Source: a virus | Lineage: Duplodnaviria; Heunggongvirae; Uroviricota; Caudoviricetes | Virus record (IMG/VR): IMGVR_UViG_2534681772_000015 | DNA: 6,621 nucleotides | Strand: one strand, 5' to 3' | Shown here: piece by piece, positions 1 through 6,621 of the stretch | How the letters are laid out: each line of letters starts with the position of its first letter | Numbering within the stretch: the first letter of the stretch is position 1 | Program-made: the position numbers and the translations under genes | The notes under the pieces: model-generated | The model's database searches: none | Told to the model about the DNA's origin: nothing | Seen by the model: the letters and a program-made list of their open reading frames with translations, nothing else

Positions 1-1158
1 ATGCTCACCGTTAAGCAGATTGAAGCAGCAAAGCCGAAAGAAAAACCATACCGCCTTCTCGATGGTAATGGCCTGTACCTTTATGTCCCTGTATCCGGGA
101 AAAAGGTATGGCAGCTTCGCTACAAGATTGACGGTAAGGAGAAAATCCTGACCGTAGGAAAATATCCGCTAATGACTTTGCAGGAGGCAAGAGATAAAGC
201 ATGGACCGCGAGGAAAGACATCTCGGTTGGCATCGATCCGGTAAAGGCGAAAAAGGCTTCGTCTAACAACAATTCATTTAGTGCGATTTACAAGGAATGG
301 TACGAGCACAAGAAGCAAGTCTGGTCAGTAGGCTATGCAACTGAACTTGCCAAAATGTTTGATGACGACATTTTACCCATCATCGGCGGCCTTGAGATTC
401 AGGATATTGAGCCGATGCAACTGCTGGAAGTAATCCGCAGATTTGAAGATCGCGGTGCAATGGAGCGAGCCAACAAAGCCCGCAGAAGATGCGGCGAGGT
501 TTTCCGTTACGCTATTGTCACTGGTAGGGCTAAATATAACCCGGCACCTGACCTTGCTGACGCCATGAAGGGATACCGCAAGAAGAACTTCCCGTTTCTC
601 CCAGCAGACCAGATCCCTGCATTCAACAAAGCACTGGCAACATTTTCAGGAAGCATCATATCGCTCATTGCGACCAAAGTTTTACGCTACACAGCCCTAA
701 GAACGAAAGAGCTTCGCTCCATGCAATGGAAGAACGTCGATTTTGAAAACAGGATTATCACTATCGACGCCAGTGTGATGAAGGGCCGCAAAATTCATGT
801 GGTTCCTATGTCAGACCAGGTAATTGAACTTCTCACTACGCTAAGCTCAATCACTAAACCAGTATCAGAGTTTGTTTTTGCCGGGCGCAACGATAAGAAG
901 AAGCCAATCTGCGAGAACGCGGTATTGCTTGTGATCAAACAAATTGGCTATGAAGGGCTGGAAAGCGGTCACGGATTCAGGCATGAATTCAGCACGATTA
1001 TGAACGAGCACGAATGGCCTGCTGACGCTATTGAAGTGCAACTGGCACATGCCAACGGCGGATCTGTGCGCGGGATTTACAACCATGCTCAGTATCTCGA
1101 TAAACGCAGAGAAATGATGCAATGGTGGGCGGACTGGCTTGATGAAAAGGTGGAGTGA
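1..1158 (+). CDS. intS: Site-specific tyrosine recombinase / prophage integrase, P4/CP4-57 family, 385 aa, apparently full length
   Basis: ORF begins at window position 1 with the N-terminus MLTVKQIEAAKPKEKPYRLLDGNGLYLYV, typical of P4-type integrase arm-binding domains. The C-terminal catalytic domain carries the tyrosine-recombinase signature: box I region LRTKELR, box II GHGFRHEF (H-x-x-R), and the nucleophile region RGIYNHAQY. Stop TGA at 1156-1158. The symbol is from my recollection that this sequence matches E. coli IntS of the CPS-53/KpLE1 element; not verified by search. Confidence 0.9.
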   Translation: MLTVKQIEAAKPKEKPYRLLDGNGLYLYVPVSGKKVWQLRYKIDGKEKILTVGKYPLMTLQEARDKAWTARKDISVGIDPVKAKKASSNNNSFSAIYKEWYEHKKQVWSVGYATELAKMFDDDILPIIGGLEIQDIEPMQLLEVIRRFEDRGAMERANKARRRCGEVFRYAIVTGRAKYNPAPDLADAMKGYRKKNFPFLPADQIPAFNKALATFSGSIISLIATKVLRYTALRTKELRSMQWKNVDFENRIITIDASVMKGRKIHVVPMSDQVIELLTTLSSITKPVSEFVFAGRNDKKKPICENAVLLVIKQIGYEGLESGHGFRHEFSTIMNEHEWPADAIEVQLAHANGGSVRGIYNHAQYLDKRREMMQWWADWLDEKVE

Positions 1159-1181
1159 TCCGCCTTAACCACTATCGAAGA

Positions 1182-1230
1182 GCACAAAGCCTTGCAATCC
1201 AGTGCAAAGCTTTGTGTGTATGAGTTTTTT
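1182..1230 (+). terminator. Possible intrinsic terminator downstream of the integrase (imperfect long hairpin plus T6 run)
   Basis: Outer arms gcacaaagc (1182-1190) and gctttgtgt (1209-1217) pair, with inner arms ttgca (1192-1196) and tgcaa (1204-1208) around a 7-nt loop. A TTTTTT run at 1225-1230 follows, but it is separated from the stem by 7 nt, so this is not canonical. Confidence 0.3.
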
Positions 1231-1301
1231 CTCACATCACCAGGCAATCATCAAACTCCGTATTCCTGGCGTCATTAATTATGTAAGTGATCACCACGAA
1301 T

Positions 1302-1329
1302 ATAGCCAGTGCAGAATAGCCAGTGCAGA
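1302..1329. repeat. Perfect tandem direct repeat, 2 x 14 bp (ATAGCCAGTGCAGA)
   Basis: Identical 14-mers at 1302-1315 and 1316-1329, read directly from the sequence. Located in the intergenic region between the integrase and the AT-rich cassette. Confidence 0.9.
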
Positions 1330-1561
1330 ACTGTAACCATCATCATCTTCTGGCAGCGCTTCCCTTCTCCCGTTATCCAGATTAACCGGGTGGTGCTGAG
1401 GATGAGTCCGATATCGCTTGATCCTGAATTCCACATCTATAGCAAAGCGGAAGGATGTCTCAATGTCGTGGACACACAGTGTTACAGCCACAAATCTATA
1501 GCCTAAGAAAGGTTTATTTTGTAATTAAAGAAGATTTTAAAAACCAGATTACTCATTCATA

Positions 1562-1590
1562 TAGACACCAATCCCCTACAGTCATAAAAT
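1562..1590 (+). promoter_or_regulatory. Candidate sigma70 promoter for the acyltransferase gene
   Basis: -35-like TAGACA (1562-1567, 5/6 to TTGACA), 17-bp spacer, -10-like TAAAAT (1585-1590, 5/6 to TATAAT). Lies about 45 bp upstream of the ATG at 1633, within AT-rich DNA. Prediction by eye only. Confidence 0.3.
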
Positions 1591-1632
1591 GCCTCTTTTG
1601 AATTGCTTTATCTTCATAACAAGAGGTTATTG

Positions 1633-2652
1633 ATGCTTCGCCACTTAACAGGACTCAGATTTATAGCTGCATTAATGGTTTATTTATGCCATTTAAATAC
1701 AGACTATTTTGGTGTTTTTGTAAAAGAAATGTTTTCCCAGGGATTTATTGGCGTTTCCTTTTTCTTTATTTTATCTGGCTTCATTCTTTCATATTCATAT
1801 GAAGACAAGCTAAAAAATGAAGTAACAAGTAAAAGACAGTTTATTCTTTTAAGATTGGCAAGAATTGTTCCAATGCATCTATTATTAGCCATGCCATTTA
1901 TTTTACTAACCATTCACTTAAAGAACTTTGATTTTTCAAAAACCTTAACAAATATTTTATTAATGCAAAGTTGGATACCAAAGGAGGATTACTACTTCTC
2001 ATTAAATGGTGTATCATGGTCTTTGTCTGATGAGCTGTTTTTTTATTTAATGTTTATTCCGTTGATTTATACATCAATTACAAAGAAAGTAATCACTGCA
2101 ATATCAATTATAACTCTACTATTAACTATATATTTTTTAAAAATTATACAAACAGAAGAACTTAATCACTGGTTATATTATATATTCCCAGTAAGCCGCT
2201 TGGTAGAATTTATTTGCGGTATGATTATTTACGCTTGCTGGAAAAACAGCCGACAGCAGACAGTCGACAGCCTTTTGTTTTTAATTTCACTATTACCTCT
2301 GCTAATAGCTATATATTATAGCAACAACATAAATAATAGTCTACGTTATTCGTTATATTATTTACTCCCCATGGTAATATTCTTTACTTCATGCATCTAT
2401 CTAAGAAATGGAGTCATTCATACTATCCTCAGTTCAAAAACCCTAGAGCTATTAGGGAAATCATCATTTATTTTTTATTTAATTCATCAACCCATTATAT
2501 TATTTTGCTTTAAAATCTTTGGACATAACCCCGGACCACTCTATTTAATAGCGCTCCTTGTTATAATAACCATAGTCTCAATCATACTTTATAAATTAGT
2601 TGAGGAGCCTTTAGAGCTGATGCTAAGAAAACGAATTTTAGCAGTAAAATAA
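1633..2652 (+). CDS. Integral-membrane acyltransferase family 3 protein (Oac/OafA-like O-antigen or polysaccharide O-acetyltransferase), about 339 aa
   Basis: I prefer the ATG at 1633 (preceded by AAGAGG at 1621-1626, 6-nt spacer) over the ORF track's TTG at 1603. The protein carries all three acyltransferase-3 signatures: R-X10-H near the N-terminus (R9...H20 in LRFIAALMVYLCH), FFxISGF-type motif (VSFFFILSGFIL), and VxWSLxxE motif (GVSWSLSDELFFY). It is hydrophobic throughout, consistent with about 10 transmembrane segments and no appended SGNH domain. The gene is about 30% GC in the one 60-nt block I counted, against visibly GC-richer flanks. Stop TAA at 2650-2652. Confidence 0.8.
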   Translation: MLRHLTGLRFIAALMVYLCHLNTDYFGVFVKEMFSQGFIGVSFFFILSGFILSYSYEDKLKNEVTSKRQFILLRLARIVPMHLLLAMPFILLTIHLKNFDFSKTLTNILLMQSWIPKEDYYFSLNGVSWSLSDELFFYLMFIPLIYTSITKKVITAISIITLLLTIYFLKIIQTEELNHWLYYIFPVSRLVEFICGMIIYACWKNSRQQTVDSLLFLISLLPLLIAIYYSNNINNSLRYSLYYLLPMVIFFTSCIYLRNGVIHTILSSKTLELLGKSSFIFYLIHQPIILFCFKIFGHNPGPLYLIALLVIITIVSIILYKLVEEPLELMLRKRILAVK

Positions 2653-2654
2653 AT

Positions 2655-2678
2655 AAAACCGCGCTATTGCGCGGTTTT
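2655..2678. terminator. Bidirectional rho-independent terminator between convergent genes
   Basis: Perfect 10-bp stem AAAACCGCGC (2655-2664) / GCGCGGTTTT (2669-2678) with loop TATT. T-runs flank on both strands, and it sits 3 nt after the acyltransferase stop. The stop codon of the minus-strand small ORF (2664-2666) lies inside the hairpin. Confidence 0.7.
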
Positions 2679-2843
2679 ATCTTCAGGCTTGATGAATTTT
2701 TTACCGTCATATGACCAGCCAATACCAACATCTCCAACACATTTAACTATATCCGCTTTTTCTGACTTAAACTCTGACTTACCATCCCATACAACAAGAT
2801 TTGTAACGACACCATTTTGTACGACTGCATAAATATCGCTCAT
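2664..2843 (-). CDS. Small phage protein of unknown function (59 aa from ATG; 64 aa if the GTG at 2858 is used), translationally coupled to the tail fiber gene
   Basis: ATG at 2841-2843 overlaps the tail-fiber stop TAA (2843-2845) as TAATG. A GGGAG Shine-Dalgarno lies about 8 nt upstream on the minus strand. Sequence MSDIYAVVQNGVVTNLVVWDG...IGWSYDGKKF resembles short beta-rich proteins I recall downstream of phage tail fiber genes. The last four codons (KTAQ) are encoded by the terminator stem. Confidence 0.5.
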   Translation of the reverse strand: MSDIYAVVQNGVVTNLVVWDGKSEFKSEKADIVKCVGDVGIGWSYDGKKFIKPEDKTAQ

Positions 2844-4039
2844 TACTGATACTCCCACACAAGAATATATCCCTGATTTCCATTATTTCCTGTCGCTGGG
2901 CCTGATGACGCCTTATTGTATTTACCTGTCCCGCCAATACCGTATGTCCCAAGCATAGTAGGGGTTATACTTTCAACGCCAATCGCCTGATCATCACCAA
3001 GTCCAATTGCCCCACATAAATTTGATCGTGAAACTGAATGGAACAGAATCCCTTGCCCTGTAGGAATTGGTGCTTCTGTTGCACTTCCCCCTGAAAATGG
3101 AGGTACCTGCTGAACTTGAGTTGATCCCCTTCCTCCCGGACATACAAGCAAATCACCAAAGCTTGTATTCCCGCCGTTACCTCCAGAGCCTCCTGGTCCT
3201 GTTCCTGCTACACCACCGCTTCCAATAGTTACTTGCACGGATTCAGGTATAGACTGATAAAAAAATGCTTTAGCATATGCCCCGTTGGAACCGGCAGCAC
3301 TTACACCACAGTTACCAGATGCAGTTGCCGACAAATTACCACTGGCACCACCTCCGCCAACGGCTTCCACTATAATTTTCGTTACACCAGGTGATTTGAT
3401 ATAAGTCCCAGATGATCCAAATGCCTGAACCCCCAAAAGCCTTCCTGTTCCATCCCCAAGTGTTAAATATTTTAGAGTTTCCGATACGTTTTTTTTACTT
3501 AAAATTTCCCTGCCATTTTGAGTCAGCGCTGTCATATCCATTGTTCCAGCACCTGTAAAAAATGCCAGCCCATCCGGAAATCCAGAAAGAGATGATAACG
3601 CAGTTAAGTTCTGGTTTTTACCCTGTTTTTCATCAATGCCTAAATATGATATAAGATTTAACCATCCATCACTTACTGAGTTTGGATTATTAGTATTTCC
3701 ATCGACAGTGTTCAAATACAAAGCGCTGCCATCATCTGAAACTATAAGAGCGTATTTTGGATAACCATTAATACCGATAGCAAAATCACTATCAAAAAAG
3801 TTTATTGCTCCTGCACTAAACCATCTACATAGAGAAGATAGTTCAAACAGAATTTGATTCATATCTTGACCTTTTGGTGGTAATCCCCCTGCAGATTTAA
3901 GGATCATGGTTATTGGAGGAAATCCTAAGTCATATGATGCTGTATTATCACCTGACGGAGTTGTTGGTAAAATCTCCCCCCTCTGTCCATTGATTCCAAA
4001 TGGTTTAGTTTGTTTTTTGGGCGCGTCTGAACGATTCAT
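2843..4039 (-). CDS. Phage tail fiber protein (398 aa) with a conserved P2-gpH-like internal motif and a glycine-rich C-terminal domain (putative receptor-binding)
   Basis: Residues about 144-196 (LTALSSLSGFPDGLAFFTGAGTMDMTALTQNGREILSKKNVSETLKYLTLG) resemble, from memory, the conserved segment of P2 gpH-type tail fibers (...LTALAGL...FPYFTGNDVASLATLTKVGRDILAK...IEYLGL). The C-terminal about 170 aa is Gly/Ser/Thr/Asn-rich (VGGGGASGN, GSGGVAGTGPGGSGGNGGN). Position is immediately after the gpI-like gene (TAA at 4042-4044, ATG at 4037-4039). Confidence 0.75.
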   Translation of the reverse strand: MNRSDAPKKQTKPFGINGQRGEILPTTPSGDNTASYDLGFPPITMILKSAGGLPPKGQDMNQILFELSSLCRWFSAGAINFFDSDFAIGINGYPKYALIVSDDGSALYLNTVDGNTNNPNSVSDGWLNLISYLGIDEKQGKNQNLTALSSLSGFPDGLAFFTGAGTMDMTALTQNGREILSKKNVSETLKYLTLGDGTGRLLGVQAFGSSGTYIKSPGVTKIIVEAVGGGGASGNLSATASGNCGVSAAGSNGAYAKAFFYQSIPESVQVTIGSGGVAGTGPGGSGGNGGNTSFGDLLVCPGGRGSTQVQQVPPFSGGSATEAPIPTGQGILFHSVSRSNLCGAIGLGDDQAIGVESITPTMLGTYGIGGTGKYNKASSGPATGNNGNQGYILVWEYQ

Positions 4040-4041
4040 AT

Positions 4042-4680
4042 TTAATCTCTGTAAAATGTACCATCATTAAACGGATAAGCATCTGATGAAAATCCAAAGT
4101 AAGGACTTACCACTTGGTTTATTCCTACGAGTACACCACTCGGAACAGGTGTTACATCATAATTCGTAAGAATAGATTCTTCGTATGGTGCAAGTTCAAA
4201 CTCGAATGTTATTCCTACTGTCATATCACGATAATTTACACAGTATACTCTTCCTCTTTGATAAAACAATATCTTTAGAAACCGGTTGATTTCTGGAATT
4301 GTAGCAATACTAATGTTTGTGAACGCTTTGCAAAATATAAGAGTTCTGTAAGCATCATCACTCAGCCTAACATTCGTTGTTTCCTGTATCCCACCAAAAA
4401 ATGGATCTCCATTGAAAGGTGTTGGGTAATTTATGTCCGCACTATTAGCCTCACTGAATCCGAAAGAACTGGTTTCTATTGGAGCATTAATATAACGACT
4501 TATTCCTACTATTTTACCCCACATATCTAGCCCGAATGTTTCACATGTGGTCAAATCCCATACTTTTGCAATAAACTCATCAGTGAAATCATCAAGGTTA
4601 ACTGCCTGATCAAAAGTATCAATGATAGATAGCAATTTTTTGCTTGCTGAGTATTGGGTAAGAATTGTGTCTTCCCACAT
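4042..4680 (-). CDS. Putative baseplate / tail protein (gpI-position protein, 212 aa)
   Basis: Call rests mainly on synteny: it lies between the baseplate-J-like gene and the tail fiber gene, as P2 gpI and Mu gp48 do. Size is compatible. A GAGAGGG Shine-Dalgarno lies just upstream of the ATG at 4678-4680. I do not see the LLPWLAW-type motif I remember from P2 gpI, so the family assignment is tentative. Confidence 0.5.
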   Translation of the reverse strand: MWEDTILTQYSASKKLLSIIDTFDQAVNLDDFTDEFIAKVWDLTTCETFGLDMWGKIVGISRYINAPIETSSFGFSEANSADINYPTPFNGDPFFGGIQETTNVRLSDDAYRTLIFCKAFTNISIATIPEINRFLKILFYQRGRVYCVNYRDMTVGITFEFELAPYEESILTNYDVTPVPSGVLVGINQVVSPYFGFSSDAYPFNDGTFYRD

Positions 4681-4691
4681 ACCGCCCTCTC

Positions 4692-5921
4692 TTACGATAA
4701 AGTAACAGTTATATCTGATTCCTGAATGGTTGGAACTTGATCTATACCCATAGTAACAGCCGGACCGTATAGAGAACCATCCAGAGACACTTCAAGAGAC
4801 AAAATACCTACTGTATCAGGAGATATTGAAATAACAGGGGCATAGTATTTACCAGCATTTATCGTCGAACCAATTCGTGCCTTTCCAATACCCTCATACC
4901 CTCCATTGAACACTGTGGATATTATTCCCTTTACTTGCTTAGATATGTCACTTGGAGGATTTAGAGATGAATCAATATTAACCTTAAAGTAAACTCGCGT
5001 CGGCGATGCTTTTTGCCATTGCATCACATATGATGGATATGGAGGCATGTAATTAACGTTGTCGTAAACAGTGAACGTTGTATCACCATTCATATTGGCA
5101 CCAGGATTATAAGTATTGAATATTGACTCAGCAACATCCTCATCAGCACCACCATAAACACAAATATAAACAGAATGCGCCAGAATAGGGAAATTCGTTG
5201 TTCCTTTATTTACTGTTTCTGCAGTTCTGTTTGACCATACGTAAGCATCAAGCACACCATCAGTCGCAAGTAACGCGGCTAATGTAGATGCGTCCTGATT
5301 TCGACTGTTTCTGGCAACTGATTGTCTCCGGCGAGTTTCAAAGGCGATCCGTGATTCAACATCAACACCAACGACTCCAGGGCTAGTATTATTTACAGCA
5401 TCCCACCCGGAAACGGCTCGATAAATCTGGTTCAGTGAACCTGCGGCACACGGAATCGGCCCGGTTGTTGTGTTGACAAACTGCACATCAACAGAGCCTG
5501 ATGAGGGTATTACAGCATTATCAATTGACTGATATATATACCCGCTCGTATCCACAGCGGTACTCCCTGCTGGTATTGTTGTTCCAACCTGACCAATGCA
5601 TGTTGCTGTAACAACTGTCCCCTGAGCAGCGATCCGTTCCATAAAGTAAATCCGACCAATCCCGTCCTGGAATCTACCGGTTGAGAAGTCAGGGTTTATT
5701 TGATTAAACAAACAAAGAAGCTTGTCGTATACCTGAGCAATGATTTCAGTGTCAGACTGTGCGATCTGACCTTGCGGTGAACTCAGTGACTGACTTGCGC
5801 CACCGCCAAGAACCGTTGACATGTCTGTAAGTCTTCCCGCCAGCACATCCGCTATGTCGGGAACTGAAAGACCGTTTTCAGTGATGGTTACATCAGGAAC
5901 AGCCGTATTTAATATCGTCAT
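4692..5921 (-). CDS. Baseplate J-like protein (P2 gpJ / Mu gp47 / T4 gp6 family), 409 aa
   Basis: Position after a small gpW-like gene with a 4-nt ATGA start/stop overlap (5918-5921). Internal segment ...ESRIAFETRRRQ...TLAALLATDGVLDAYVWSN...VYICVYGG fits the baseplate-J pattern as I remember it. Size is appropriate for the family. Confidence 0.7.
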   Translation of the reverse strand: MTILNTAVPDVTITENGLSVPDIADVLAGRLTDMSTVLGGGASQSLSSPQGQIAQSDTEIIAQVYDKLLCLFNQINPDFSTGRFQDGIGRIYFMERIAAQGTVVTATCIGQVGTTIPAGSTAVDTSGYIYQSIDNAVIPSSGSVDVQFVNTTTGPIPCAAGSLNQIYRAVSGWDAVNNTSPGVVGVDVESRIAFETRRRQSVARNSRNQDASTLAALLATDGVLDAYVWSNRTAETVNKGTTNFPILAHSVYICVYGGADEDVAESIFNTYNPGANMNGDTTFTVYDNVNYMPPYPSYVMQWQKASPTRVYFKVNIDSSLNPPSDISKQVKGIISTVFNGGYEGIGKARIGSTINAGKYYAPVISISPDTVGILSLEVSLDGSLYGPAVTMGIDQVPTIQESDITVTLS

Positions 5922-6262
5922 AAGGTGGCCTGTGCAATATTACCATTGATATCTGTAACGCGGATTGTGCCGCGAGTTGTAAGTGTATTCTTGTCAAAGA
6001 AAACTGATGCCAGAGCATCCTCAACGACGGGTAATTTGAGTGCTTCAGCCTGCATTTTCTGAGCAATAAAACCAGGAGATGGTCGCCTGCCAAGAACTTC
6101 TGCCTCCCATGGAATCCCAAGCGTATTGTCGTAATAACACTCTCCAGAAAACACCAGGCACGCACTGGCGACATCCTGAGCAACAGAATATGATTCTTCT
6201 GCGATCGCCAGATTGCCATTTCCGTCAAGCGTCAAGTCCCACGTAGAAGTGTCCAGTTGCAT
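5918..6262 (-). CDS. Small baseplate wedge protein, gpW/gp25-like (114 aa); translation start uncertain
   Basis: About 115 aa ORF immediately upstream of and overlapping the baseplate-J-like gene, the canonical W-J arrangement. Its ATG (6260-6262) is only 5 bp from the IS end at 6268 and an in-frame stop lies at 6293-6295 inside the IS, so the native upstream region and ribosome-binding site have been replaced. Confidence 0.5.
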   Translation of the reverse strand: MQLDTSTWDLTLDGNGNLAIAEESYSVAQDVASACLVFSGECYYDNTLGIPWEAEVLGRRPSPGFIAQKMQAEALKLPVVEDALASVFFDKNTLTTRGTIRVTDINGNIAQATL

Positions 6263-6267
6263 AGTTC

Positions 6268-6621
6268 TGAACCGCCCCGGGAATCCTGGAGACTAAACTC
6301 CCTGAGAAAGAGGTAAACAGGATGACTAAAAATACTCGTTTTTCCCCCGAAGTCCGTCAGAGGGCGATTCGTATGGTTCTGGAAAGTCAGGGCGAATATG
6401 ACTCACAGTGGGCGGCAATTTGTTCCATTGCCCCAAAGATTGACTGTACACCGGAGACTCTGCGTGTCTGGGTACGCCAGCATGAGCGGGATACCGGAGG
6501 CGGTGATGGCGGGCTCACCACCGCTGAACGTCAGCGTCTGAAAGAGCTGGAACGTGAAAATCGTGAACTGCGCCGCAGTAACGATATCCTTCGCCAGGCT
6601 TCCGCTTATTTTGCGAAGGCG
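6268..6621 (+). mobile_element. IS3-family insertion sequence, left end (IS629/IS1203-like), running off the window
   Basis: The terminus begins with TG (TGAACCGCCCCGGGAATCCTGGAGACTAAACTCCC...) as IS3-family left inverted repeats do, followed by an AAGAGG ribosome-binding site and orfA. The IS629-like assignment is from memory of the OrfA sequence. Confidence 0.85.
6322..6621 (+). CDS. IS3-family transposase OrfA (partial; 3' end beyond window)
   Basis: Translation [100 protein letters not shown] shows the helix-turn-helix plus leucine-zipper organisation of IS3-family OrfA proteins. No stop codon before the window end. Confidence 0.9.

Follow-up and report, generated by a model that had tools for sequence, protein, structure and literature searches.

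The DNA analysed here, a stretch of 6,621 nucleotides that is called the window throughout, is the final 6.6 kb of AIHG01000019.1, a draft contig of 337,560 bp in assembly GCA_000250335.2, whose source E. coli strain is probably DEC13B. It belongs to a temperate, myovirus-type E. coli prophage integrated at the tRNA-Arg gene argW, beside yfdC. The features of the window are as follows.

1–1158, plus strand: intS integrase gene.
About 1232–1440, minus strand: remnant of an S24-peptidase gene.
1633–2652, plus strand: AT-rich acyltransferase gene, with its own promoter-like site at 1562–1590.
2651–2682, minus strand: strong hairpin terminator with a 14-bp stem, which closes the late operon.
2664–2858, minus strand: small ORF of 59–64 aa, the last gene of the late operon (phrog_14370, E 2e-27).
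2843–4039, minus strand: glycine-rich tail-fibre gene, intact (PF21722; tail-fibre families phrog_12796 and phrog_863).
4042–4680, minus strand: baseplate wedge-1 (DUF2612) gene, the gpI analogue, intact (PF11041, E 1e-49).
4692–5921, minus strand: baseplate J/gp47-like gene, intact (PF04865, E 1e-11), 100% identical to that of strain TW10590.
5918–6262, minus strand: gp25/gpW-like ‘sheath initiator’ gene, reduced to 114 codons (PF10934, precomputed; phrog_120).
6264–6267, minus strand: 4-bp target-site duplication, the copy on the W side (operon strand GAAC, plus strand GTTC).
6268–6621, plus strand: left 354 nt of an IS629 element, 100% identical to nt 1–354 of the copy in TW10590.

The hairpin at 2651–2682 is common to the late operon and to the convergent acyltransferase gene. 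Between the insertion sequence and the integrase gene the only structural genes are the W-, J- and I-like genes, the fibre gene and the small ORF, just as had been read from the letters alone. Their assignment to a contractile-tail baseplate module (gp25/W-like, J/gp47, wedge 1/I) follows from family-level protein similarity, with the Baseplate_J and DUF2612 proteins scoring above the Pfam cut-offs, while the gpW-like protein gave no match at E ≤ 0.01 in our Pfam-A and NCBIfam scans. A search of a phage collection at the DNA level returned matches to the integrase gene and the IS only. All ORFs of the window are 100% identical to those of TW10590 (NZ_CP035850.1), in whose annotation the small ORF is a 59-aa CDS, and the insertions described below are therefore recent.

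The base at 6268 (TGAACCGCCCCGGG) is the left end of the insertion sequence and lies 5 nt from the ATG at 6262. Full-length database matches all start exactly at this base, which bears out the view of the sequence-only reading that an IS3-family element adjoins the gpW-like ORF here. From 6268 onward (TGAACCGCCCCGGGAATCC...) to 6621, the only part of the copy that falls within the window, the 354 nt are 100% identical to a 1310-bp IS copy in TW10590. That copy in turn displays 96% identity over positions 1–1310 to features annotated as IS629 in BP-4795 and LC567824. RefSeq names similar copies ‘IS3-like element IS1203 family transposase’, and IS1203 is an isoform of IS629 (PMC3271280), an element with hosts in E. 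coli and Shigella and with IS3411 as another isoform. The ends of the element read 5′-TG...CA-3′ (IRL TGAACCGCCCCGGGAATCCTGGAGAC; IRR, as reverse complement, TGAACCGCCCCGGGTTTCCTGGAGAG) and belong to imperfect terminal inverted repeats of about 26 bp, of which the left one occupies about 6268–6293. orfA starts with the ATG at 6322 and runs past the ends of the window and of the contig; its N-terminus matches the HTH_Tnp_1 and NF033516 (IS3-family) profiles. An identical full copy of the IS is annotated with a ‘programmed frameshift’ and an AL1L pseudoknot (orfA/orfB), and rve_2 and rve_3 matches, corresponding to the DDE/rve part of orfB, were obtained at right-end IS junctions. In its length, its TG...CA ends, its orfA/orfB arrangement with a programmed −1 frameshift and its target duplication of 3–4 bp the element conforms to IS629, to which, as a member of the IS3 family, we assign it on the basis of sequence; it differs by about 4% from the IS629 copies of O157 and of Stx phages.

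At the W junction the transposase genes run antisense to the late operon. An in-frame stop for the gpW-like frame does lie inside the IS, as had been noticed (TAG, the complement of 6293–6295). A promoter scan of the IS detected no sigma-70-like promoter on either strand, and the search of the IS for terminators returned one weak hairpin in the right inverted repeat, where 1.0 would be expected by chance.

The position of the IS relative to the gpW-like gene depends on where that gene natively starts. The reverse-strand ORF at 5918–6262 was confirmed, with 114 codons and its ATG at 6262–6260. A conserved ATG 15 nt upstream of 6262 overlaps the stop codon of a preceding gene of 230 aa (ATGA), the native junction being ...CCGAC ATGA CATACAGAACT ATG CAA..., with two in-frame ATGs; RefSeq annotates both a 114-aa and a 119-aa form on identical DNA. 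The junction (CGACATGACATACAGAACTATGCAA) is identical in TW10590 and in seven further E. coli relatives, and these eight, being invariant, are uninformative on the start codon. The comparison was accordingly made with relatives in Cronobacter, Citrobacter, Salmonella and Yersinia, whose 230-aa proteins are 64–79% identical. The ATGA overlap is kept in all four, and the five extra codons, MTY(R/K)T, show only synonymous or R to K changes among these genera; the second ATG is displaced by one codon in Yersinia. These observations concern only four codons in four distant relatives. In addition, the alignment to phrog_120 (‘baseplate wedge subunit’) begins at residue 1 of the 119-aa form (E 1e-34). 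Because ATGA and MTY(R/K)T are conserved and the phrog_120 alignment starts at residue 1, the native gene probably comprises 119 codons, that is MTYRT followed by the 114-codon ORF, and would be ATGA-coupled to the gene upstream; the annotated start is corrected accordingly. With a native start 15 nt upstream, the IS would lie inside codon 5, and not in front of the gene where it was formerly placed.

Nor is the gpW-like gene the first of an operon, as the sequence-only reading had it. In every IS-free relative it directly follows the 230-aa baseplate gene, deep in the late operon, and in all relatives it either overlaps that gene (ATGA) or sits 11 nt from it. The order hub/spike, W, J, I, fibre is conserved in the eight E. 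coli relatives and in the four relatives from other genera. From this arrangement we place the W, J, wedge, fibre and small-ORF genes as the last five of the late operon rather than as an operon of their own. Since the relatives have no intergenic space at this point, no native promoter was lost, contrary to the proposal that the insertion had removed one. The 230-aa gene itself is named ‘baseplate assembly protein’ or ‘Mu Gp45’ by different sources. Its product gave nothing significant in the Pfam-A and NCBIfam scans, PHROGs and precomputed Pfam assigned it no family, and its weak, below-cut-off Pfam matches are to Gp138_N-like and GpV-apex models; the label ‘spike-like’, as used here, refers to these sub-threshold matches and to the source names.

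An IS-free counterpart of the locus is available in TW10590, the only complete E. coli genome that covers the rest of the window. It is 100% identical over window positions 1–6269 and has no IS at the W-junction site, so that the uninterrupted native junction, for which comparison with an IS-free homologous prophage had been proposed, can be read directly; in the IS-free relatives it is ...CATACAGAACTATG.... The IS junction itself is absent from 5,426 complete E. coli genomes, no record covering at least 80% of a 300-nt junction probe.

The other junction of the IS was found in the same assembly, on the 2283-bp contig AIHG01000052.1. This contig carries, in order, an IS629 left end, the 3′ half of a plug gene, a gene of 317 aa, the intact 230-aa gene and an IS629 right end, and outside the IS ends it matches TW10590 with 100% identity over 1718 nt. 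With a slash marking the IS boundary, the sequence at its IS right end is ...ACATGACATACAGAAC/TGAACCGCCCCGGGTTTCC. The V-side junction on this contig is ...CATACAGAAC/TGAACC and the W-side junction in the window is GGTTCA/GAACTATG. Comparison of the sequence at this right end with the window junction, GGTTCA/GAACTATGCAA, and with the empty site, CATACAGAACTATGCAA, reveals a direct duplication of 4 bp, GAAC, which is within the 3–4 bp reported for target duplications of IS629 (PMC3271280). Thus the IS right end and the target duplication, which had been suggested as checks, are both present on AIHG01000052.1. The recovery of both junctions, with flanks that are contiguous in the empty site and with a direct repeat of the target, indicates a simple transposition and not a deletion.

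The palindrome GTTC-T-GAAC that had been pointed out at 6264–6272 is indeed there. It consists of the duplicated GAAC beside the IS end TGAAC, and as a meaningful feature in its own right it was discarded. A preference of the element for targets resembling its own end was likewise considered and rejected, the flanks of the other four copies (GTA, AAG, TTC and GGG) being unrelated.

The remainder of the prophage was recovered on three further contigs, each bounded by IS629 ends. AIHG01000049.1 holds the 3′ part of the SLT/tape-measure gene, P63C, two Arc genes, Ant, a gene of 271 aa and the 5′ half of the plug gene. AIHG01000044.1 holds the 3′ part of a Pa193_gp24-like head gene, the cement protein, major capsid, neck, sheath and tube genes and the 5′ part of the SLT gene, and AIHG01000047.1 a gp49-like gene, the small and large terminase genes, the portal and MuF genes and the 5′ part of the head gene. 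The IS-bounded contigs are 99.96–100% identical to the TW10590 prophage, and between the IS copies all segments are retained, including the sheath, tube, capsid and terminase genes. Besides the insertion at the V–W junction, IS629 interrupts three structural genes.

Plug gene, nt 156 of 303: IS629 antisense to the operon, both junctions recovered, duplication GTA.
SLT gene, nt 922 of 1815: IS629 sense to the operon, both junctions recovered, duplication AAG.
Head gene, about nt 278 of 1227: IS629 antisense to the operon, both junctions recovered, duplication TTC.

Another copy, the fifth, precedes the terminase genes, and 26 nt separate its left end from the gp49-like gene, which lies downstream. 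In all, at least five IS629 copies, in both orientations, are present within about 25 kb of late region in this single prophage. No single contig spans both junctions of any one IS, and we infer their linkage from the target duplications and from native adjacency. The order and orientation of the IS-bounded contigs, which a draft assembly does not allow to be read, are likewise taken to be collinear with the native arrangement.

We consider it highly likely that the locus represents an ordinary IS629 insertion in the middle of the tail operon of a prophage, with nothing deleted, the segments collinear, downstream expression reduced and no virions made. Simple insertions may also have been followed by an inversion between oppositely oriented IS629 copies, by which the W-to-fibre module would have become separated from the spike-like gene. 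The setting would permit this, with at least five near-identical copies in both orientations over about 25 kb and draft contigs that give no order, and an inversion taking place inside IS copies (between the SLT copy, which is sense, and the antisense copies) leaves every junction sequence unchanged. However, nothing speaks positively for such an event. Collinearity is the more parsimonious assumption, and a perfect target duplication accompanies each of the junction pairs recovered, so that we regard an inversion as very unlikely.

The sequence-only reading had offered, as one of its two options, that the IS, or recombination between IS copies, had deleted the genes for spike, tube, sheath and head, so that only a truncated, cryptic tail remnant stayed by the integrase gene. 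These genes are absent between the IS and the integrase, as it observed, and in the window nothing follows the IS, where the contig stops. The relatives, however, never have the genes on that side of the W gene but on the other. Moreover, AIHG01000019.1 ends 2 nt past window position 6621, within the IS, and its end is therefore an assembly break in a repeat. The same assembly contains the adjacent 230-aa gene along with the complementary IS right end and the duplicated GAAC, as well as the plug, 317-aa, 271-aa, Ant, SLT, tube, sheath, capsid, portal and terminase genes on the IS-bounded contigs. A target duplication together with intact adjoining genes is what that reading had itself named as the mark of simple insertion, and this is what was found; a deletion is thereby refuted at the level of sequence and is highly improbable. 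An assembly artefact, with the IS/gpW-like join formed at a chimeric contig end only about 350 nt away and in a multi-copy repeat, deserves practically no credence, given that a second contig bears the complementary junction with precisely the 4-bp duplication expected and that SRR096910, when assembled independently, is broken at the same points, to the base, with 29-nt IS termini at its contig ends.

For the favoured interpretation, that of an ordinary insertion without deletion, the following course of events is proposed. A 1310-bp IS629 would have transposed by the ordinary route into the junction of the 230-aa and gpW-like genes, a pair that in its native form would be translationally coupled, the ATG of the second gene overlapping the TGA of the first. 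Entry of the IS 14 nt into the gpW-like gene, with duplication of GAAC, would leave the upstream 230-aa gene intact and would deprive the gpW-like gene of its first five codons (MTYRT) and of the ATGA coupling. The internal ATG at 6262 would then come to lie 5 nt from the IS end, and the sequence upstream of it (GGGGCGGTTCAGAACT) offers at best a poorly spaced Shine–Dalgarno-like run. The last five late genes would be left behind 1.3 kb of foreign DNA with no recognisable outward promoter, and late transcripts would need to cross 1.3 kb of IS read in the antisense direction.

An IS within a polycistronic unit, as in the classical cases of IS1 and IS2 in gal and lac, is expected to lower the expression of distal genes. 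As the IS here is antisense, 1.3 kb long and devoid of a recognisable promoter, expression of the W, J, wedge and fibre genes is probably reduced. The present case differs from the classical polar insertions in that its polarity is predicted from sequence and in that Q antitermination may resist polarity: late transcription under a Q-type antiterminator could traverse the IS, and translation could still begin at the internal ATG. The tape-measure, plug and head genes are also interrupted, and the prophage should therefore make no virions. It is thus probably defective through insertions rather than through deletion.

The only mildly unusual aspect of the prophage is that its late region is so dense in IS629, with five copies. 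It seems to us unlikely that the grouping of at least five independent IS629 insertions, of which four share one orientation and all are absent from the otherwise identical prophage of TW10590, reflects a regional mechanism rather than chance together with relaxed selection. Were this so, it would imply local hopping of IS629 or transposition coupled to prophage induction or replication; alternatively, it could mean repeated selection to knock out a harmful late operon while the integrase-proximal acyltransferase gene was kept.

Beyond annotation the significance of the locus is slight. It does illustrate that a contig which ends in an IS beside an apparently truncated phage module need not imply a deletion, and that target-site duplications allow the small IS-bounded contigs of one draft assembly to be stitched together.

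Among the closest known systems is the TW10590 argW prophage, whose gene order is the same (plug, 317 aa, 230-aa spike-like, sheath initiator, J, wedge 1, fibre). It differs in having an IS3-family element within wedge-1 and, in the early region, a copy of IS629; the wedge-1 element was checked as a candidate for the same IS and proved to be unrelated. The early region of the TW10590 prophage is lambdoid or P22-like. More distant relatives of the structural module occur in Edwardsiella phages GF-2 and Edno5 and in Vibrio phage IKEMa6-1, with J proteins that are 69–72% identical. IS629 insertions in prophages have been described for O157:H7 (Rump et al. 2011, PMC3271280; Ooka et al. 2009, as cited there). 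In O157 genomes 62% of the IS629 copies/sites are in prophages, and the copies are strain-specific, have no target defined by sequence and play a part in the decay of prophages and the diversification of strains (PMC3271280). Compared with these, the present case concerns a different host lineage and a different type of prophage, with at least five copies in one late region and, in TW10590, an otherwise 100% identical prophage that lacks all of them at the corresponding sites. A strain-private burst of IS629 into one prophage fits the known prophage bias of the element. IS629 behaves here as described for O157 genomes, and the event is ordinary prophage decay.

The prophage late region holds at least five copies of IS629 within ~25 kb, as counted on the contigs of the source assembly. 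Relative to the late operon, four of these lie antisense and one sense, and for four copies both junctions were recovered, each with a perfect duplication of 3-4 bp. The 100% identical prophage of E. coli TW10590 has none of these late-region copies. The density of IS629 here suggests local hopping, or else relaxed or positive selection.

IS629 ends on contigs of the source assembly
L006 (AIHG01000052.1): 1-289 and 2007-2283
L011: 1-351 and 5749-5977
L016: 1-351 and 8521-8857
L029: 3-406 and 5615-5832

In the tape-measure/SLT gene, the fragment from the IS right end (L011 1-351) is only 97.7% identical to the other copies, with 8 mismatches over 351 nt, and the other IS629 copies of the strain are 99.5-100% identical. 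Either the strain has a second subtype of IS629, to which this divergent end belongs, or the draft assembly shows a collapsed consensus here.

The sister prophage in TW10590 carries insertions of its own. Its wedge-1 (DUF2612) gene is interrupted by a different, unrelated element of the IS3 family, and a copy of IS629 with a GGG duplication lies between ssb and the Rad52-like gene. IS elements strike both sister prophages independently of each other.

IS elements of the TW10590 prophage
L001 (late part) ~16040-17563: unrelated IS3-family element, equivalent site in the window ~4228
L008 (early part) 9234-10543: IS629, between the ssb and Rad52-like genes

For the sheath-initiator (gpW-like) gene beside the insertion, two starts are annotated in RefSeq on the same DNA, giving a 114-aa product in three genomes, TW10590 among them, and one of 119 aa in the rest. 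Sequence comparison favours the 119-aa, ATGA-coupled form.

Sheath-initiator gene and equivalents
Window: 5918-6262
L001 (TW10590): 19254-19598
L002: 20474-20833

Across the IS, on the flank with the 230-aa spike-like gene, the severed start of the gpW-like gene now begins a 17-codon ORF (L006 1993-2046), MTYRTEPPRVSWRVFYL*, which extends into the IS right inverted repeat and is probably without meaning.

At the other end of the window, an S24-family peptidase pseudogene (1232-1440, minus strand, as annotated in TW10590), frameshifted and truncated at its N-terminus, sits between the integrase and an acyltransferase (Acyl_transf_3) gene. The acyltransferase region (1601-2800) has a GC content of 29-34%, compared with 44-49% in the integrase and the IS. 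The gene has its own promoter-like site (1562-1590, 10/12 matches) and shares a hairpin terminator (2651-2682) with the convergent late operon; it looks like a foreign ‘moron’, whose product probably modifies a surface polysaccharide.

Window positions 1172-3583 form a mosaic cassette that matches unrelated prophages at different loci with 98-99% identity (matches H3 and H11-H13). It comprises the S24-peptidase remnant, the acyltransferase, the small ORF at the end of the late operon and, from the fibre gene, the C-terminal two-thirds. The breakpoint of the cassette at ~3577-3583, around fibre codon 150, falls where the N-terminal PHROG matches of the fibre give way to the C-terminal ones. The receptor-binding portion of the fibre appears to move together with the surface-modifying gene. 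In WS4437A-1, a GDSL esterase occupies the place that the acyltransferase holds in the window prophage.
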